Source: Haliotis cracherodii
Lineage: Eukaryota
NCBI RefSeq assembly: GCF_022045235.1
Contig: NW_027266286.1
Coordinates: 75,516,001-75,580,000, forward strand
Length of the DNA: 64,000 nucleotides
Reading direction: 5' to 3'
The position numbers and the translations under genes were made by a program. A model generated the notes under the pieces. The model did not search any database. It worked only from the letters and a program-made list of their open reading frames with translations, and had not been told where the DNA came from. This document shows, in pieces, positions 7,271-60,294 of this stretch; the stretch's first letter is position 1, and every line of letters starts with the position of its first letter.

Positions 7271-10200
7271 ATGCTGGGAAGAGTGCATCTGAACCTAACA
7301 TGTCTGGGCCTTCTCGTCCTCGTGTCTTTGTTGGTCGTTGCACTCTTGAACGACAGTATCATCCATAACATATCGTTTTCCACGCTTTCGGGACAGAGGT
7401 CCAGTCCTGGCCATGCTGTATCAAAGCCTATGCTGCCTGACTTGTACGATCAGCAGAAACGAAAAGCACTTGACATCATGAACACGGTGAGATATAGTAG
7501 TTACACAGACATTTTCACTACCCACAATATCATACTGTCAAGTCAAAGTGAAAGAATATATATTTTGAGTTAGCAAGGACGGTGTCCTGGCGGACTACTT
7601 TAACAACTGATGGATGCATGTACAGATGTACCCTTAGGTTACGCTGGAAGTACGTAATGACAGTATATACACTAGGCGGACTACTTTAACAAGATTCGGG
7701 GAAAACATGGCATCCATGCGGGCCTCGCTTACGAAGTGTCACGATTGCTTCCCAAGTGCCAAGTTTCCCAACTCCCCAATGGTCTCGGTGCCTTAAGTTT
7801 AATACCTCCCAATCTGTTGACTGACATTGAGAGAGTACCCGGGTACTCTCCGAAAAGCTGTTCGACCAGTCAGCGCTTCCTGGGAGAAGTACCATTCGCT
7901 GTCTGGGCTGCGTGTAGAGGGGGCAAGGCCCCTGAGCTGATAATGAGCCTAACCAGCCTGTCTGTGCCAGGATCATCCGAACCTTCTTTTCTGCATTTAT
8001 GCTTTTACTTATAATTATGATGATGGTATATGATGATGATGACTCCTTGCTTTCTGGCATTGAATGTTTCATTGCAGTCGATGTTTACATTCAACCAAGC
8101 ATTCAAAAATCCATGCTGGTGGGAAACATCACTTGATGACAGCAACTGTGTTGATCTGATGGAAGACGCACGGAAACCACTGCAACAAGCGCACAGAGAC
8201 CTCAGGGCCGACAAGAGGATCCTGCGATGCCTACCGTATTTCCAGATAGTGGGTCAGGCCAAATGTGGAACAACTGATCTCTTCAGTAAACTTCTCATGC
8301 ACCCACACGCTGTACCGACCATGCTGAAGGAGACGCAGTGGGTTAGCCGCGTGCGAACAAGTACGTTTCTGTAGCTGATCTATATCTACGAGCTGTCAAC
8401 ATTTGCTCAACGTATAACCATCAACGTATAACCATCAACGTATAACCATCAACGTATATATATATCCCTACCCCCATCTCTTACATGAGTAAATGATGAA
8501 TCGACAAACAACTTCATATGAAAGCTCTAGAGCTGAGCTGTGTTGGCTGCTGTAATTAATAAATATATTTGATTGTTTCAGACCAGTTTTGTTCTCCCGT
8601 AAACACGTACGTGAACTACTTTCAAAAGAGTGCCAATAGTATCAGACAAGGATTGCAGGATAAAGCTATAATAGGTAAACCACTTTGTCTATGATGTTTG
8701 ATCATAATTTTTCATAGTTCTGTTTTAGATATTGAGATTACTACACGAGTGTCTGTCAGATACGAGTTGTAAGATCAATGGTATCTGACAGGCACGACTG
8801 CAGTAATCTGTTTCTCGCACCTTTTTAGCATCGAATCGATCCATTTTGTCTATTCTCATGATCGCAGTAGCGCATTAATATATAACACCACTATCATAAG
8901 CGACGTCATCCTATGTACTGCTTACTACTCATTAATAATGTGACCCTACACAAAAAGGTGACCGCCATATCTGCGGATTATCAAGGCATTGATGATAATG
9001 CCAAACTATACAAAAAAAGAACGCGCTGGGTGCCGAGTTTAAACAATGTTTACTTCCGTATGAGTGAGTGAGTGAGTGAGTTGGGTTTAACGCCGCTTTT
9101 AACATTATTCCATTTATATCACGGCGTGTCAGCTTAATGCGGGAGGAAAGCCCAAAGTGATGCAGGTCTCAGACGTTAACCACTTCGGTGAAACCCACGA
9201 GCACGGGTATGGTGCTGACAAACCTAGAAACATAATCGGGGTGAACCGGGATTCGAACCCACAATCATAGGTTTCTGGCGTGTCCAGGGGACGCAACTCT
9301 GCACAGCGAATCGCGGCGCCTTAGACGACTGGGCCACCCGTGTCCCCACTTCCGTATGACATCCATACCGGTGACCGACTTTTACAAAATGTCTTCTTCA
9401 CTGACAACAGTACGCGGAGTTTCTAGAGGAGGGTTTTCGTTGATTGAGGGATCGTATACACATAAATGTGTGACGTAGGTAATCAAAAACATTCTGACAA
9501 TCTGCCTACTGTTATTTGTTACCATGTTTTCCAATGTAACAAAGAGAATTGGTCAGAAATGCAAATAACTACCGTCTTCGTTGAGCGTGATTTAGCATCA
9601 GTTATAGCGTCACACAGGACGGAAACTTTTACGGCTTCTGTTGAATTTACCACATCATTGTAATGTATATATGTGTAATTCCATAATTAGGGCAACATTA
9701 TTCTTCCCGTGAATAATCCCAAACGCATGATCGAGCCAATGTATGCAACAATTAAACGAAAGTGCCTCTAAAAATGCTACACAGTGTAAAATCTGAATTT
9801 TGCTTTGTTTATATTTCAGCAAGTACAGTTTTCGTTTCCATGCCTAATTTATTTCGCATGATTTCATCTAGATTATTTGCATTGGTGACAAAGACCATTT
9901 GTCACTTGTTTCTAAAATGTATGAGGAATTCAGGGATGCATGTATAGCAGCTGAGTTTGAAATATACCTGATGAAAAAGGAGCCTCATAACCGGCATTGT
10001 GTAAACACAATCCAATATGGCGGTACACTTCGCATTCTACACGATTCTAGGCTTATCAGCGACGTTTCAGAATTATCATTAGTGATTTGATACCCGTAAT
10101 TACTAATATGCTATTTTCCTACTCTAATTATTCGAGTAAATATCGAGTAAATTAGATTTCTAAACACACAGTAAGTAACGCCGTGAATTGTGATTTTGCG

Positions 10201-18959: not shown

Positions 18960-20290
18960 TTAGAAATTTTAGAACTGACGCATTTCAGACCGATTTAGAT
19001 AATTGTTGCAACAAAAGGTATTTTTGTGAATGAGTTTATTGATGAAATCAAATTGTTGCTGTTTGCGGATGACATTGTCTTAGTAGCAGAACTCTGTAAT
19101 TGAGCATCTTTTTGTGATACCTGGGGCCTGGGAGTCAACCTGGATAAATAAAATATAATTGTATTCAAAATTGGTGGTGTTATTACACCACTTGAAAAAA
19201 TGGTTCTATAAAAATACAGAACTGAAAATAGTGACATATAATAAATACTTGGGCATTGTCTTTTCATCACGTCTTCTGTTGTCTTAGGTCTGTGACACCC
19301 TAGCTACACAGGCCAAGAAAACATGTTTTCCTATTTTTAAGTTGACTAAGCTCTATCCGTACATGCCATTTAAGGTAATTGTTTCTATATTCGATAGTAA
19401 AATAGCTTCGATTGCTTGTTATGGAAGTGAAATTTGAGGATTTATATTTGGAGAAAGTATAGAAAAAGTCCAAAGTGTTTTAAAGATATTTACAAACAAG
19501 TAATGAAGCATCATCTAATGCGGTTCTTGGTGAAGTTGGCCGTTATCATCTGAGTGTTATTTATTTCAGCCGATGTATAAGATATTGGTGTAGATTGATA
19601 CGCATGAATTCAAATCGACTTCCACATGCTTGTTATAAAATGCTGAAAGTACAAGATGATAATGGCGGTGTAAATTGGGCTTCTCATGCGGGAATGCTTT
19701 TGTTTAAATCTGGTTTTGGTTATGCGTGGATATCAAAGGACTGTGGACATATACATTGTTTTATGGAATTATTCAAGAGAAGAAGTATTGTCATGGTTGT
19801 ACAAAGCTGGACTCTAAACATTAACAGTTCTGTGTTCGTGAACCATTATGCGTCATATAAATCACTATTTGAAACTAAACTCTGTATAACCTCATGCTTT
19901 GATAAGGATCTTGTAAGAGTTTAAGCGAAATTTCGATGTTAAGCACATGGTTTAAAAGAACAAAAACAGCGCTTTAGCAAGCAGTTTATGCAACCGGAAT
20001 TTGTATTCTGTGAAAAGTGTGATTTATAATAATTAGAAAATGAATATCATTTTGCACTAGTTTGTACATATTACGAGAAAAGCAGAGAAAGTTTAATTCC
20101 CCGTTATCTTCATCACTGTCCATAAAAACAGAAATTTGCCTACCTGATGTCCCCCAAAAATGTTAATGTTATAAGGGGGTTTGCTCTTTATCTAAAGATA
20201 AATTTGCCAGTTTATCATTCAACAGAAGTGTTAATCTGTATTAAAGATAGTACGCATGTTATATGAAAAATATTTGTACTCTTGGCCACG
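18960..20290 (+). mobile_element. Decayed LINE RT fragment, RTE-X-like
   Basis: LLLFADDIVLVAE, FCDTWGLGVNLDK, ACYGSEI*GF, LGEVGRYHL, CIRYWCRLIRMNSNRLPHACYKML, ENEYHFALVC; many stops and frameshifts. Interrupts the 50-bp satellite. Confidence 0.75.
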
Positions 20291-26000: not shown

Positions 26001-27201
26001 ATTTGTGGATTGATGATGAAATAACATGGGTAGTTTCCTGTCCTGCCTCCCTTCAAGTGTTACATGAGAAGTGTTCATGTTCATCCTTTATCTTAAATGT
26101 AAACAAGCTTCAGGTCAAACTCACATAGAGGTACAGCCACTGTACGGAATATAACGATGACTCGATACACCCAGGAATGGAGTTGAGTTTTCATGGTACT
26201 AATGTTGTATTCAAGTATTATTCTGGCTATAAATAGGGGAACACCGGACATGGAAATACAACGTTGTACATATCCGAACGCTTGAGTGAGTGAGTGAGTG
26301 AGTTGGGTTTAACGCCGCTTTTAACATTATTCCAGTTTTATCACGGCGTGTAAGCTTAATGTGGGAGGAAAGCCCAAAGTGATGCAGGTCTCAGACGTTT
26401 ACCACTTCGGTGAAACCCACGAGCACGGGTATGGTGCTGACAAACCTAGAAACATCCCGAACGCTTGAACCACTAGACCACCCAACCGATCCTTCTTACA
26501 TATAGACATATCATAAAACAACTGATGTCTGTGTTTGACAATAGCCACAACTTCTGCTACAGCTAATCAACTCCAACGAAAAAGGTGGAATTGAAGTATC
26601 AAATTGCAGGTCACACCGCCCGACGTCGCCCAAAGATAACCGGTAAATATAAAACAATAACGTTACACTACGAAAGGTAACGTGATGTTATTTGCACATC
26701 TTCCATGCTAAAGGTGCACCTAAACAATCTTTTCAAATGATTTATAAAGTTGACTTAAGAATTTACTGACTCTAAATTATGCTTAAACATTAAAACCAGC
26801 TGTTGGTTATGATCAGCCTCACCTCTATCGACGTTTAGTTTTGTTTTCAACAACCAAAGTGAAACGTATTCTACATGCTACCGTTGAAAAGACAATGCTG
26901 CTACTGGCAATAAACTGCTGAACAGACAATATTGCTGCTTACAAACTACAATAGGAAAGACATTGTTGCCACTTACAAACATCTGTAGGAAAGACATTGT
27001 TGCCACTTACAAACATCTGTAGGAAAGACATTGTTGCCACTTACAAACATCTGTAGGAAAGACATTCTTCCTACTTACAAATAACTGTAGGAAAGACATT
27101 GTTCCTACTTACAAACATCTGTAGGAAAGACATTGTTGCCACTTACAAACATCTGTAGGAAAAACATTGTTCCTACTTACAAATAACTGTTGGAAAGACA
27201 T
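23039..27201 (-). CDS. Secreted repeat-containing WAP-domain protein (signal peptide, His-rich segment, 13 x 14-aa GQG..L.VDPA.GI repeats, FOLN-like Cys module, C-terminal WAP), 392 aa; probable shell-matrix/mantle protein
   Basis: Exons 27201-27181 (MSFQQLF|gtaagt), 25422-24535 (ILASVWATSYG...PDPCA|gtatgt), 23998-23908 (DVRCPRGQLCRSIRCPTPQYCTPQAECVLK), 23217-23039 (VRRGFCPAAVYHYHRGRVLCGQPPECTFDYQCPGNRKCCGACKVCEHP...FAG*). Phases 0,0,1 join in frame. 8-Cys WAP pattern. TATAAAAG lies 63 nt upstream of the ATG; AATAAA at 22441-22436. Confidence 0.88.
23360..23575 (-). mobile_element. SINE family C copy (intron 3 of the repeat-WAP gene)
   Basis: Shares the core ccttaatgccgagcgccagacagggtaacaacaagt with the 44.9 kb and 56.6 kb copies. 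Confidence 0.72.
26286..26456 (-). mobile_element. SINE family A, 5'-truncated copy
   Basis: Nearly identical to the 3' half of the 9064 copy. TSD ccgaacgcttga at 26274-26285 and 26457-26468. Appears nested in an older SINE remnant in intron 1 of the repeat-WAP gene. Confidence 0.85.
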
Positions 27202-42723: not shown

Positions 42724-44345
42724 CTAGTTCGGGCAACAGACAGCGAACCTGTCAGTCGGGTCGATGTGACAGTAACTTTGTACAGGGCAGGTCACTCTGG
42801 AAGGACCACGCCCACAAAACAGGGTTGTTCCATCGCTGCTCCTCAGTGGTTGGGTGTTACTGGGACACAGCTGGAGTTCTGAAACAGGCGAACGTCATGA
42901 CGAGCTACTGACGCGTGTGTCGTTTCACCAGGAGTAGACCAGCTTTATATTTGGCGCTAAAATGAAAGTCTACACGCGCAGAATATTAAATATAGCAAAA
43001 TGCACTCAGGGGAACAACATAAACGGTTCACTATCATCTCATAAAAGATCCACTTCTCTTGGTGTCTATTGGGGGCACGGGTGGCCCAGTCGTCTAAAGC
43101 GCCGCGATTCGCCGTGCAGAGTTGCGTCCCTTGGGCACGCCAGAAACCTATGATTGTGGGTTCGAATCCCGGTTCGCCCCGATTATGTTTCTAGGTATGT
43201 CAGCCCCATACCCGTGCTCGTGGGTTTCACCGAAGTGGTAAACGTCTAAGACCTGCATCACTTTGGGCTTTCCTCCCACATTAAGATGACACGCCGCGAT
43301 ATAACTGGAATACTGTTAAAGCGGCGTTAAACCCAACTCACTCACTAGGTGTCTATTAGCCTAGTAATCATTAATAATTCAAACATCCACGTCTTCAGGT
43401 GTCTATAAGTCCTGTTATCATTAATACGTCGAACACTCTCTCATTCATTCGCCATATAGTCGACACTTCTTGGCAACGGAACATTCGTGGCACTTAACAC
43501 TTGATTGTTGTAGCAGGTTTTCTGTGAGATAAATTGGTTCCCGATTCGCTGACATTATGACCATTGGTCTATCAGCACCATGATTAGGATAAGTTGATAA
43601 CCGTTTAAACGTTACTCCCACTCAGCTGACTTTCCTTGAAACGATTAAAACGACTCTCAAGTCCAGATGACAGGACCTTCCAGGTACATGATGTTCGCGT
43701 TCGCCAAGTCTCGTTTTCCATGACGTCATAACGCCAGTTGCAATTCATGACAGAATAGCATAGATTTCTATGAAAATGATTATATATCACAATACTGTGC
43801 ATCGAGAATATTTTTCAGCAAGAGCTACAAAAAAGGACATTTTTAAAAATTTAAAACTATGAGCCTTTAAGAAACACACATTGCAAAAATGTAAATTTTG
43901 TGGCAGGCAATTTCTTTTTTGTTATACGTCTGAAGACAATGTATTTTTTGACAACTTACTACAACCCACTTCCCCCTAGTCGGTCCATAGGAACGTTCCG
44001 AATAATAAAATAAGTACGGATTGTGTCAATAATCAAAACATACGTCTCTCTGAACTTGCATCGATGCCCCTGAGAAGACACGGAGTTAGCAGCTGTGGAG
44101 ACATAAAACAGGTGATGTAGAACACACAACACAACCAAATTGTTGAAGACGAAGCTAAGTTCATAACTTAAGGACTGTGCTTAAGATGAAGCCTGAGTCT
44201 TATGCTGAAAGATCACAAGGGAACACACATTGTCCATCCCCTGGTGCCCCAGGTGTCACGGCAAAAAATAACACAGTTGGATGTAGATCAACGAAACACA
44301 CATAATACAGAATTTGCTTACCAGTATAAAATACAAATATTTCAT
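42724..44345 (-). CDS. Small secreted peptide with a single lustrin-type cysteine-rich module, 75 aa
   Basis: Exons 44345-44322 (MKYLYFIL|gtaagc), 44092-44044 (LLTPCLLRGIDASSER|gtatgt), 42878-42724 (QLQLCPSNTQPLRSSDGTTLFCGRGPSRVTCPVQSYCHIDPTDRFAVCCPN*). Phases 0,1. AATAAA at 42721-42716, just after the stop. The C..PL..FCGRGP.R..CP..SYCHI.P.DRFAVCC pattern resembles the lustrin cysteine-rich repeat. Absent from the ORF track. Confidence 0.82.
43071..43347 (+). mobile_element. SINE family A, full length
   Basis: Same head, body and tail as the 9064 copy. TSD ggtgtctatt at 43061-43070 and 43348-43357. Confidence 0.88.
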
Positions 44346-56409: not shown

Positions 56410-56700
56410 CAGAGAGGTGAAAAGGAGTTTAACGTCACGTTCAAGATTATCGCACTTACATAGCAATTTGCATGCACGTTTACTACTCCGGACTAATGAC
56501 GATTTATAGGCTAGCCCACTGACACACGCAGTTTAACATTGATACCACACTCAGACACAGTGTACTGACACCGAGCAGACCAGTCCTTGTTGTAGCCCAT
56601 TAATGCCGAGCGCCAGACAGGGTAACAACAGGTACCACCTTTTTAACGACTTTTGGTATGGTCGAACCCCCAACCTTACACTCTCCGGGCGGACGGTACA
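56410..56700 (-). mobile_element. SINE family C copy downstream of perlwapin
   Basis: Shares the core taatgccgagcgccagacagggtaacaaca. Confidence 0.7.
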
Positions 56701-56900
56701 AAAACTCGAACAAGGAGACGGTCCATAGTCTCTCAAGAAATAGTGCATTCAGAGGGGCCATACGAGCCTGCACGCCATGCCAAAATTCCACACAACTTAT
56801 ATTATTTCTCATAAGAATAATTTACTAAATTGCTAAGATTGTTTGTCAAGTCAACGTTTCAACAGTAGATATTTATTGACCAACATTTACATCATTACAT

Positions 56901-59544
56901 TTAGTCATAGCATGGTTTTTCACACTGTCTGGGGCAGCCTCCGCAGCACTTCTGGTCCCCGGGGCAGTCAAAGTCACCAACACAGTACGCAACGCAGACC
57001 CCCGCATCATACTTTCTCCTTGGACAAGTTCCGGGCTTTTCTGGCCTGTAGCACCCCTTACATCCTGGCTTGCCGCAGCACTTCTGGTTTCCGGGGCAAT
57101 CCTGGTCGTTGTAACACGCATTTCCTTTACAAGGGCCTCGTTTTATCACTGGGCAAATCCCTAGACAATATAAATATGAACTTATTAGCATATTTCAGTT
57201 TTCAACATGTCAAGAGTATTTGTTATACAGTACATCTGCGAGGGTATATAAAAGAAACAACGTGTTTTGTAATGTATAGTTTGTAAAGTGTGTAACGGTT
57301 CTTGGTCCAAGGTTGTGTCCCTTTGTCGTGGACGGATCCTGATCAACCTAAACATGATCCTTTCTTTTCGAACACTTCACAGGTTATGGTGTAATTATTT
57401 CATTCTGTGTAATTGAGTGAGAAAATGCTCACAAGCAGATATGTGTCGGCTCAATCAGGTCAAATCCTCTTCAATGAGCTCTTACTCGAACGCAAGGCGA
57501 AATATCAGGGACTAATGTTACCTCAGGATGCCAAACAGAAAACAACACATTCCCTCAAACTTTCATATTAGCAGCTTGACCTGTCTTTGAATGCGTTTGT
57601 GACCTGTGCCACCGTTTAATTTACCTGGCTTGGGTTTGGGGACACAGGTGATGTAGCACCCAGCTCTACAGCAGTAGTATCCAGGACGGCAGTAACGGTC
57701 GCTGTAGCATCCCCGCTCGCACACATCAGGGAAGTCCAACCCAGGAGGACAGCCTGGAACAATTGGTACCGGTATATTGTTATTATGCACTGTTACAGAC
57801 CTGTATGTTCAGCTGCAAGTGACACACACATATATCAAGATGAACAATTAACTGTTACCCCATCATCGGCACTATGATGCTAATTAAATTCGTATGTTGA
57901 GATAAAGCATTTTGGGTTTGTTTTAGTTTTGTAAAATATTAACAGTAAGCCTTAAGTGTTTTATGAAATTAATAAAACTGTGTGCATGGACGTGCAATTA
58001 GAAGCATTTCTTTATATTAGAAGATGTGAAGTAAACCAGGATAGCAAACTATATCAACAACAAAACATAACCATAATATATGGCATTTTCATTTCATAAT
58101 AAAAGTACTTGGTGAATGACCCTTTTTGAAGTGACACGGTAGAATTAATTTATGTTTCACCTTTCACCTTCCCCAAGCATGCCAATCATATATCATAACA
58201 TTGTTACACATTGAGGAACGAATGTTGTTTTGTGTTAGTCAGAAATAGATGCTATCGGACTGTAAGTAATCATGTTTTGACTGGGCGGACACGTGTCGCT
58301 GGTACATTTATCATTGGACCAATCAGGAACAAACATTATTGCCACCAAGGGTGATAATTTATTATATACATATGAATGAAATACTGGAATATATCAGTGA
58401 CGATAGATCAAGTTATCAGTCACTAGTGACTGATATAAACAAGGTGCCGGAACTACTTTCTCCTGAATCAAAACATTACGTTTACGTCAGATGCCGACTG
58501 TCTCAACCGCAGGTGCATAACTTCTCTTCAACTGACCACAGGCACTTTTTGACGAGTCTGATGTCTGGAAATAACATCTATGGCAATGTTAATATCACTC
58601 TTGCGCCGGACATGCTTCGCCAGACATTAGGCACAACTGGCGACAGCGAGACGTACTGCCGAGGCGAGAAGCGCCCGCTTGAATTTTCCGAGAATTGAAC
58701 TTTCCTAATTTAATTCATGACAGCAAGCAACAATGTTACAGTTAAAATGTTCGGGGTTCACGAACGAGTGAAAATATTAGACTCTCCCCACTTCACTCGA
58801 TTTCAATGTGTATCAATATTGTTGTAAAATAAACATTCATGGATAAACATAGTGTTAGTGTGCTCATTGCAGATGCGCATGAACGCGAACGTTTAGTGAA
58901 CTAGGAGCTGGCCGCAACCTAATGGCGCTTAATGTGAGCGGCATATCCTGATAGTGAGAGTCAGTACATGTGCACTAAGGAATACCAAGCTACCTGACAG
59001 TAGGTAACATATATGTAACAGTGGTCAACACTGGGCAGAAGAAGAGACAATGCCAAAATATAAATAACAGTAATTAAGCAGAGACATAGTTACACAGCTC
59101 GTTTAGGATGGCAGACAGTCAATGTACAATGAAATGGCGATTAATAATGGGGATGAACATTTTAAAGAAATTTCGATAAAGTGATTCTTGGCAAAGAGAG
59201 CTACAGAGTAGTTAACCTTTTGTTCATTCAGACATTCAAATCGGTCGCTATGACAGTATCAGTATCAATATCTGGGGTGATTTGCTTTACCTGGGAGCTG
59301 TGGCCCATAACCAGTGGCAGTTCCCACAAGAACCGCTGTACAAACAACCTGTAGACGTCAAACAAGTGATATATGCCATGCAAATACAACAGCTTGAATT
59401 TTACAACAAGATTTATGTTCAGCCAAATTGCGACAAAACTGTTGATTCTAAAACTGTTAGCAACACACCCAACAAGAGAAATGACCATGTTTACATTGGT
59501 GAGTTTACGACAGCTGTACGTACCAAACACAGGAGGAGATGCAT
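56901..59544 (-). CDS. Perlwapin (or a close paralogue): secreted nacre-matrix protein with three WAP domains, 155-aa precursor
   Basis: Exons 59544-59524 (MHLLLCL|gtacgt), 59348-59291 (VVCTAVLVGTATG-YGPQLP|gtaaag), 57753-57625 (GCPPGLDFPDVCERGCYSDRYCRPGYYCCRAGCYITCVPKPKP), 57160-56901 (GICPVIKRGPCKGNACYNDQDCPGNQKCCGKPGCKGCYRPEKPGTCPRRKYDAGVCVAYCVGDFDCPGDQKCCGGCPRQCEKPCYD*). Phases 0,1,1. The predicted mature N-terminus YGPQLPGCPPG and WAP2/WAP3 closely match Haliotis perlwapin as I recall it. AATAAA at 56877-56872. Confidence 0.92.
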
Positions 59545-59563
59545 GTTGCTGGTGGTGACATGA

Positions 59564-60263
59564 TGTTGTTGTTGCATTAGGTGTTTAAGAGGTCGCCTTC
59601 TGCCTAGGCAATTTCGGCTGACCTGTCCCTCTTTGGGACTCCTGTGTGTGAGAAGGGTTCACATATCTATTGTGGTTTCGGTGTTCACATAATTTCTGTT
59701 TTTGCATTGATATGATTTCTATTTTCTTATATTGATATGATTTCATTTTTATCCTTGGCTGCTCTGTTTATATACGTTCGAGCAGCTGTCCATCTCTCAG
59801 AAATAGAGTTAGTTTGGCCTTCGCTATTGCATCTCTTGGCTTTAGGAGATCTATGACAGATAGCGGATCTAACTGCAATTCTTGTTTTAACCTAGCCCGG
59901 GCTGGGGCATGGTCTTGACATTCTAGTAACAGGTGGTCAATGGTTTCAGCCTGATTGCAAGATGAACAAACCTTGTCATAGAGCTTTTTGTGACCAAGTC
60001 TGAGGCGTGAGATAGCAGTTTCAATTTTCCTTTCATTTGAGTATGAGTTTGGCTTTTGTTGGACCTTGGGTTGAATTTTGTATAGCCATCTGCCGATCTT
60101 ACTTGCGTCCCATTGGGCTTGCCATCTTTTTGCTATGGAGGCTTTGATTTTGCTTTTTATCTCTAGTTTACTAAAGGGAATAGGCTGTATATCCGCTTTG
60201 TCTAGAGCTAGCTTCGCCAGTGAGTCTGCTTTTTCATTTCCATGAATATCTATGTGAGAGGGG
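59564..60263 (-). mobile_element. 5'-truncated I-group (RNase H-bearing) LINE with 10-bp TSD
   Basis: Intact ORF2 C-terminus: RNase H end PSHIDIHGNEKADSLAK, ISRLRLGH, and zinc-binding CSSCNQAETIDHLLLEC. 3' UTR ends in (CAA)n. TSD ggtgacatga at 59554-59563 and 60264-60273. Confidence 0.88.
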
Positions 60264-60286
60264 GGTGACATGACGGGAGCTGTTTG

Positions 60287-60294
60287 CTTATATA
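60287..60294 (-). promoter_or_regulatory. Probable ancestral TATA box of perlwapin, now displaced by a LINE insertion
   Basis: TATATAAG, the same motif as the 50835 box. It would lie ~40 nt upstream of ATG 59544 if the insertion and one TSD copy were removed. Confidence 0.6.

Follow-up and report, generated by a model that had tools for sequence, protein, structure and literature searches.

The perlwapin gene of the abalone Haliotis cracherodii carries an apparently young retrotransposon insertion that interrupts the short interval between its likely core promoter and its start codon. In a 64,000-nucleotide (nt) stretch of contig NW_027266286.1 (positions 75,516,001 to 75,580,000; hereafter the window, with coordinates counted from its first letter), a 700-nt, 5′-truncated long interspersed nuclear element (LINE) of the I group lies in sense orientation between a consensus TATA box and the perlwapin ATG, flanked on both sides by an exact 10-nt target-site duplication (TSD). 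On the sequence of this one allele we lean, by a modest margin over even confidence, toward a strongly hypomorphic and probably segregating perlwapin allele, in which a long leader crowded with upstream ATGs would sharply reduce translation of an intact coding region.

Read along the minus strand, the locus consists of the TATA box TATATAAG (60294–60287), 13 nt of intervening sequence, one copy of the repeat (60273–60264), the insert (60263–59564), the second copy of the repeat (59563–59554), 9 nt and the ATG (59544). This arrangement matches to the base the initial annotation of the locus, which had described a 700-bp sense LINE with a perfect 10-bp TSD, one copy 9 nt upstream of the perlwapin ATG and the other 13 nt downstream of the TATA box. 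The match between the two copies cannot be extended on either side, and the 10-mer occurs on the minus strand of the window only at these two positions, both flanking the insert; a shared 10-mer at such a spacing was found at 80 of 36,732 non-tandem start points (0.2%), a background that allowed a generous 31 by 21 offsets around the spacing. Furthermore, the ends of the insert are fixed independently of the duplication, since the homology to the second open reading frame (ORF2) of related elements begins at 60262, two bases inside the edge of the upstream repeat, in all eight relatives aligned by tblastn, and since a (CAA)3CA tail at the 3′ edge of the insert abuts the lower repeat. The locus therefore shows the anatomy of a 5′-truncated non-long-terminal-repeat (non-LTR) retrotransposon insertion: a flanking TSD, with the 3′ end of ORF2, the 3′ untranslated region (UTR) and a simple-repeat tail present and the 5′ part absent. 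Removal of the insert and one repeat copy, on the assumption of no target-site deletion, reconstructs a TATA-to-ATG distance of 40 nt, which agrees with the annotated estimate of about 40 nt and compares with 51 nt (50835 to 50784) and 63 nt (27264 to 27201) in two sister genes within the window.

The insert itself comprises the C-terminal 164 codons of ORF2 with their stop (59768–60262), unbroken and covering the end of an RNase H domain and a C-X2-C-X7-H-X4-C knuckle, followed by a 204-nt 3′ UTR (59564–59767) whose last 11 positions (59574–59564) form the tail. The ORF2 remnant is part of a 167-residue open reading frame (60271–59768), of which only codons 4–167 derive from the LINE. An exhaustive protein search with this frame recovered 2,993 proteins at E ≤ 0.001, with top matches beginning at residues 3–5; it succeeded where a word-based search for long ORF2 relatives had found none among 727 candidates. 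The frame itself has no curated-level match in Pfam. Domain scans were performed on 22 relatives (the top five and 17 long ones among 150 listed of the 2,993), and 15 contained endonuclease, reverse transcriptase (RT) and RNase H domains, two contained RT and RNase H, four contained RNase H only and one contained none. The domain set of the I group (apurinic endonuclease, RT and C-terminal RNase H) is thus seen through relatives, 21 of the 22 of which have RNase H, as the copy in the window begins within RNase H and has no RT domain of its own. A C-terminal CCHC zinc knuckle is a feature of I-group LINEs, and the knuckle in the window copy is conserved in its relatives, endonuclease–RT–RNase H proteins that end as the insert's ORF2 does; the I-group assignment in the annotation is upheld on these grounds. 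The clade would be either Nimb or Ingi, a choice that the copy does not fix because the clade-defining RT domain is missing from it and its relatives are without names. Both are I-superfamily clades reported across molluscs, alongside one unassigned octopus clade (PMC10294476). Zebrafish Nimb-2_DR generates TSDs of 10–15 bp and many 5′-truncated copies (PMC4245944), a range in which the 10-nt duplication falls at the low end without being specific to Nimb, and in H. discus hannai LINE/I elements are described as numerous, with a recent expansion (PMC5439488). No second copy of this LINE was found in the 64-kb window. A weak tblastn match on the plus strand (19213–19497; 29% identity over 100 residues to the post-RT region of one ORF2 relative, E = 0.001, one of eight queries) is perhaps an old LINE fragment. 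Just before the tail, two adjacent hairpins are predicted (59639–59590, minus strand; z = −2.4, with 2 of 200 shuffles folding as well), possibly the 3′ recognition structure of this LINE's family.

Several features suggest that the insertion is young, as the annotation had proposed. The window copy retains an open frame and all 22 of the columns whose conservation among 149 relatives is at least 80%. The one close sibling, protein P0002 (88 of 98 residues identical, 90%), has lost two of 17 conserved columns and carries a frameshift near its end; the relatives agree with the window copy at eight of the nine sites at which it differs from P0002, a count biased by the choice of relatives for their likeness to the window copy. 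In simulations, the frame and the TSD survived together with a probability of 0.43 at 1% divergence, 0.18 at 2%, 0.09 at 3% and 0.015 at 5% (indel ratio 0.1), and at 5% neutral divergence the value ranged from 0.0005 to 0.04 over the three indel ratios tried. These values bound the divergence at roughly 5%, and the copy is probably under about 5% diverged. Youth of the copy does not in itself imply that the insertion segregates.

Downstream of the insert, perlwapin is intact, in agreement with the earlier claim that its coding exons are unharmed. The gene occupies four exons on the minus strand, joined by GT-AG introns and encoding a 155-residue product: the seven codons of the exon 1 coding part (59524–59544), exon 2 with the remainder of the signal peptide and the start of the mature protein (59291–59348), exon 3 with WAP domain 1 (57625–57753) and the coding part of exon 4 with WAP domains 2 and 3 and the stop (56901–57160), after which AATAAA follows at 56877. 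By Pfam, exon 3 holds one WAP match and exon 4 holds two stretches. The product has the signal peptide (judged by homology to H. rubra) and the three WAP four-disulfide-core domains of perlwapin, the same secreted three-WAP design as the proteins of H. laevigata (P84811), H. asinina (P86730) and H. rubra (model P0001). The H. rubra protein is the best relative, with 119 of 155 columns identical (77%), all 27 cysteines kept and the first 12 residues the same; the window gene is that of a different Haliotis species or a different copy. Intact exons provide little evidence of the function of the allele, because a young insertion allows little time for decay. Of 146 candidates in a protein search for a conspecific or N-terminally extended perlwapin, three reached E ≤ 1e-10: the H. 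rubra cluster, a protein from a fish and a two-WAP protein of H. asinina. None had a LINE-derived start and none was identical, a result that is uninformative on the insert. No second perlwapin copy was found in the window. Genetic evidence is not known to have settled what perlwapin does in the living shell. The protein ranks with the most abundant ones of nacre in H. laevigata, where it accounts for about 2–4% of nacre matrix protein (PMC6003135, Table 1), and it inhibits CaCO3 crystal growth in vitro (PMC6003135). In H. asinina, perlwapin was detected in the prism-containing extract only (PMC2989941), so the label "nacre gene" that the annotation used is not certain for the species examined here.

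The position of the insert relative to the promoter is central to its expected effect. The consensus TATA box at 60294 (60287–60294, minus strand) is likely the native perlwapin core promoter, since all three WAP genes in the window carry a consensus TATA just upstream of a short coding first exon (21–24 nt), each with a chance of about 0.024; the background was 51 matches to TATAWAWR in 47,072 unmasked nt on two strands, or 0.024 per 45-nt slot. In mouse, cap analysis of gene expression placed TATA-driven starts 29–32 nt from the first T (best at 30–31) on a pyrimidine–purine step, and boxes closer than 28 nt were mostly non-functional (PMC1779604). By this rule, the reconstructed empty site offers such a step at −31, between 59554 and 59553 and exactly on the TSD edge, and another at −28; sister B has steps at −29 and −31, and sister C has them at −28 and −33, outside the expected range. 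The native transcript would start at 59553 and have a 5′ UTR of 9 nt (59545–59553), and the insertion would fall on this predicted +1, in line with the annotated placement at the transcription start. A second indication comes from the empty site's out-of-frame ATG, which has a purine at −3 and lies 17 nt before the real ATG: it is harmless only if it is upstream of the start or in an intron, and it is best tolerated with a native start downstream of it, in agreement with the TATA-based prediction. The filled allele retains only the step at −28, because the LINE begins with a run of C. A transcript starting at the first LINE base would open with C and eight pyrimidines in all (60263–60256, minus strand), and a pyrimidine-rich 5′ start of this kind resembles a 5′ terminal oligopyrimidine (TOP) motif. 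The duplicated 10 nt correspond to positions −10 to −1 of the predicted start. This is roughly the stretch that is melted in an open polymerase II promoter, and the element could have cut an open promoter.

Counting from the predicted start, the leader of the filled allele holds 17 upstream ATGs, ten of them with a purine at −3, over about 720 nt, which bears out the expectation of a roughly 0.7-kb leader with upstream ATGs. The annotation had emphasized the ATG in the upstream TSD copy (60271), which does open the 167-residue ORF in frame with the ORF2 remnant; the weight given to it is not sustained, because this ATG is only 23 nt from the TATA box and precedes any expected start, so that the ORF is probably not in the mRNA. 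Translation of that ORF from the TSD ATG was rejected on this spacing. More consequential is the duplicated ATG at 59561 in the downstream TSD copy, absent from the initial reading. It has a purine at −3, lies 17 nt before the perlwapin ATG and on the spliced mRNA opens an out-of-frame ORF of 79 codons that overlaps perlwapin and stops 15 nt into the last exon; because of this out-of-frame overlap, a ribosome that used it could not restart at perlwapin. Overlapping upstream ORFs are predicted, from plant data, to repress most strongly (PMC13405301). A second ATG missed at first, in the LINE tail (59575–59577), shares the perlwapin frame and would extend the protein by 11 residues ahead of the signal peptide, in a weak context with neither a purine at −3 nor a G at +4. 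The leader also folds somewhat more than its shuffles (z = −2.4, 0 of 20). Premature polyadenylation in the insert was rejected, as neither AATAAA nor ATTAAA occurs in it (variant hexamers are present).

Taken in order, these features suggest the following course of events. An active I-group LINE of the Nimb or Ingi clade would have integrated in the germ line through target-primed reverse transcription and left behind a 5′-truncated copy and a 10-nt duplication with its edge on the predicted perlwapin +1. The TATA box and upstream promoter would remain in place, directing polymerase II to start about 30 nt after the TATA box, at the junction of duplication and LINE, with the best initiator exchanged for the C-run and a poorly spaced one left at −28. 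Transcription would be expected to read through the insert, since it has no canonical poly(A) signal, so that exon 1 would be about 740 nt long instead of about 30 and the leader about 720 nt instead of about 9. Ribosomes scanning this leader would then encounter 17 upstream AUGs, the two hairpins and, last of all, the duplicated ATG, which would preclude re-initiation at perlwapin, and translation would drop sharply, so that the allele would yield much less perlwapin. Upstream stops may also destabilize RNA. As far as sequence allows a judgment, the insertion is most likely mildly deleterious and segregating.

A number of considerations weigh against this account of a strongly hypomorphic allele. 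The exact +1 is weakly fixed, since 28 of the 51 background TATA motifs also have a step at −30 or −31, and the spacing rule derives from mouse. The implied native UTR of 9–12 nt is short compared with 93 and 71 nt in two other abalone shell genes (PMC10741955, PMC11591584). In Drosophila, only one of nine roo insertions in one promoter consistently altered expression (PMC4982627), and this variation in effect makes a mild outcome here a real possibility. In addition, where the product is an abundant nacre protein, one would be somewhat more likely to sample a mild allele than a strongly deleterious one. Lastly, a TATA-like motif and usable splice sites within the insert, neither of which figured in the initial annotation, could bypass most of the upstream AUGs.

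Such a bypass is the most serious competing explanation, although we consider it clearly less probable than translational loss. It supposes that transcripts start inside the 3′ end of the LINE, either near 59744 from the motif at 59774 or close to the tail, or that a cryptic intron (60102–59642) is removed, giving moderate amounts of perlwapin, translated either from the native ATG or from the ATG at 59577, which would lengthen the signal peptide by 11 residues. The motif TATATAAA (59767–59774, minus strand), formed by the last ORF2 codons and the stop, has a pyrimidine–purine step at −30 and is a possible internal promoter; with a chance of 0.32 for such a motif in 700 nt, it is probably accidental. 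The candidate intron (59642–60102, minus strand; scores are rough) has a donor after 60103 with a score of 5.7, which falls in the range of nine local true donors and close to the 95th percentile of 3,100 background sites, and an acceptor before 59641 whose pyrimidine fraction (0.69) equals that of several true acceptors, but this donor is simply the top scorer among 17 GT sites, under a matrix built from nine sites. The ATG at 59577 is in frame with perlwapin and the coding exons are intact with 27 of 27 cysteines, both in favour of a bypass; against this, that ATG has the weak context described above, and either route keeps the overlapping ATG at 59561 and leaves five (internal start) or six (splicing) upstream ATGs. 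In an extension of the same idea, which seems improbable, the insertion would be fixed or common in this abalone lineage and would have been co-opted, with its 3′ end providing a new start or a spliced leader and the 11-residue longer signal peptide; if true, the dose of a crystal-growth inhibitor would have been retuned and shell microstructure altered.

It is unlikely that the TATA box at 60294 is not the main promoter and that transcription begins farther out, for example in a block 1.1–1.8 kb upstream, from a non-coding exon spliced to an acceptor at 59548, an arrangement that would render the LINE intronic and neutral, or would at most weaken that acceptor. A CAG acceptor candidate does lie 4 nt before the ATG (59548; pyrimidine fraction 0.62), the model would explain both the short apparent UTR and the out-of-frame ATG, and both perlwapin and sister B are preceded, at about 1 kb, by a block of about 700 nt with 80% identity that has a TATA-like motif of its own; the consensus TATA boxes of all three WAP genes at promoter distance from exon 1 (chance about 0.024 each) oppose it, and no exon can be assigned in the block, which has no Pfam or Rfam match. 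We also doubt that the allele is disabled without consequence because another perlwapin copy elsewhere does the work. The identity to H. rubra perlwapin of just 119 of 155 columns and the tandem arrangement of WAP genes in a window that ends 3.7 kb upstream of the TATA box would allow for such a paralogue, but the signal peptide, length, three-domain layout and all cysteines of the gene match perlwapin, no other copy lies in the window and the protein search gave one close cluster only. Least probable by far is an assembly artefact in which a repeat was misplaced into the perlwapin locus: other copies of the family exist (P0002, 90% identical) and tandem repeats are frequent in the window, but the exact duplication on either side, the simple-repeat tail and the cleanly truncated 5′ end point to retrotransposition and away from misassembly.

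Alleles created by transposons that land in core promoters or 5′ UTRs are well known, and the perlwapin case belongs with them. P elements have reportedly inserted in heat-shock promoters. The roo solo-LTRs (isolated long terminal repeats) at Drosophila CG18446 are natural insertions in the proximal promoter and 5′ UTR (PMC4982627). Common to these cases and the perlwapin insertion is a change of spacing in a core promoter that may move the start site. The perlwapin insertion, by contrast, is a sense LINE fragment without its own 5′ promoter, seen once in a mollusc shell gene, and its TSD is itself predicted to create the overlapping upstream ORF. Our literature search, from which subscription journals were mostly absent, turned up no description of either this insertion or the perlwapin promoter, and perlwapin is not mentioned in PMC5850307. 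If the insertion segregates, it would constitute a natural perlwapin knock-down in a farmed animal, genotypable by a single polymerase chain reaction, and would permit a direct test of the role of perlwapin in nacre; should the allele prove rare or bypassed, the insertion would count as one among many of its kind in a LINE-rich genome. More generally, a TSD can place a harmless promoter ATG in a leader, where it opens an overlapping upstream ORF.

Two further secreted WAP-domain genes lie in tandem with perlwapin on the minus strand of the window: sister B (50784–47657), encoding 104 residues with one WAP domain, and sister C (27201–23039), encoding 392 residues with a His/Ala-rich part, 14-residue Pro/Gly repeats and one WAP domain. 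Both are likely shell-matrix or protease-inhibitor genes of a tandem cluster. Promoter homology among the three genes was dropped as evidence, as the proximal promoters align unconvincingly (1–92 of 100 shuffles reach the score). The shared block (62108–61397 and 52658–51842, both on the minus strand; about 700 nt at about 80% identity) contains an identical core of 52 nt; its distance to the TATA box downstream is 1.10 kb at perlwapin and 1.01 kb at sister B. It may represent a common enhancer, an upstream promoter or independent copies of a repeat; unlike the block, the exons of perlwapin and sister B show no DNA similarity by blastn.

In sister C, a 34-bp minisatellite (27208–26924, minus strand, 8.4 copies) has as its first unit the coding part of exon 1 together with the splice donor of that exon, and most of its units repeat the ATG and a GTAAG donor-like motif, offering potential alternative starts or donors. 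Short interspersed repeats resembling SINEs (short interspersed nuclear elements) occur at 9098–9348, 26320–26455 and 43070–43320, and also at 56660–56414, 44989–44770 and 23523–23357, with one family at 94% identity between copies and another at 67–78%; background on Haliotis SINEs is given in PMC4758252.

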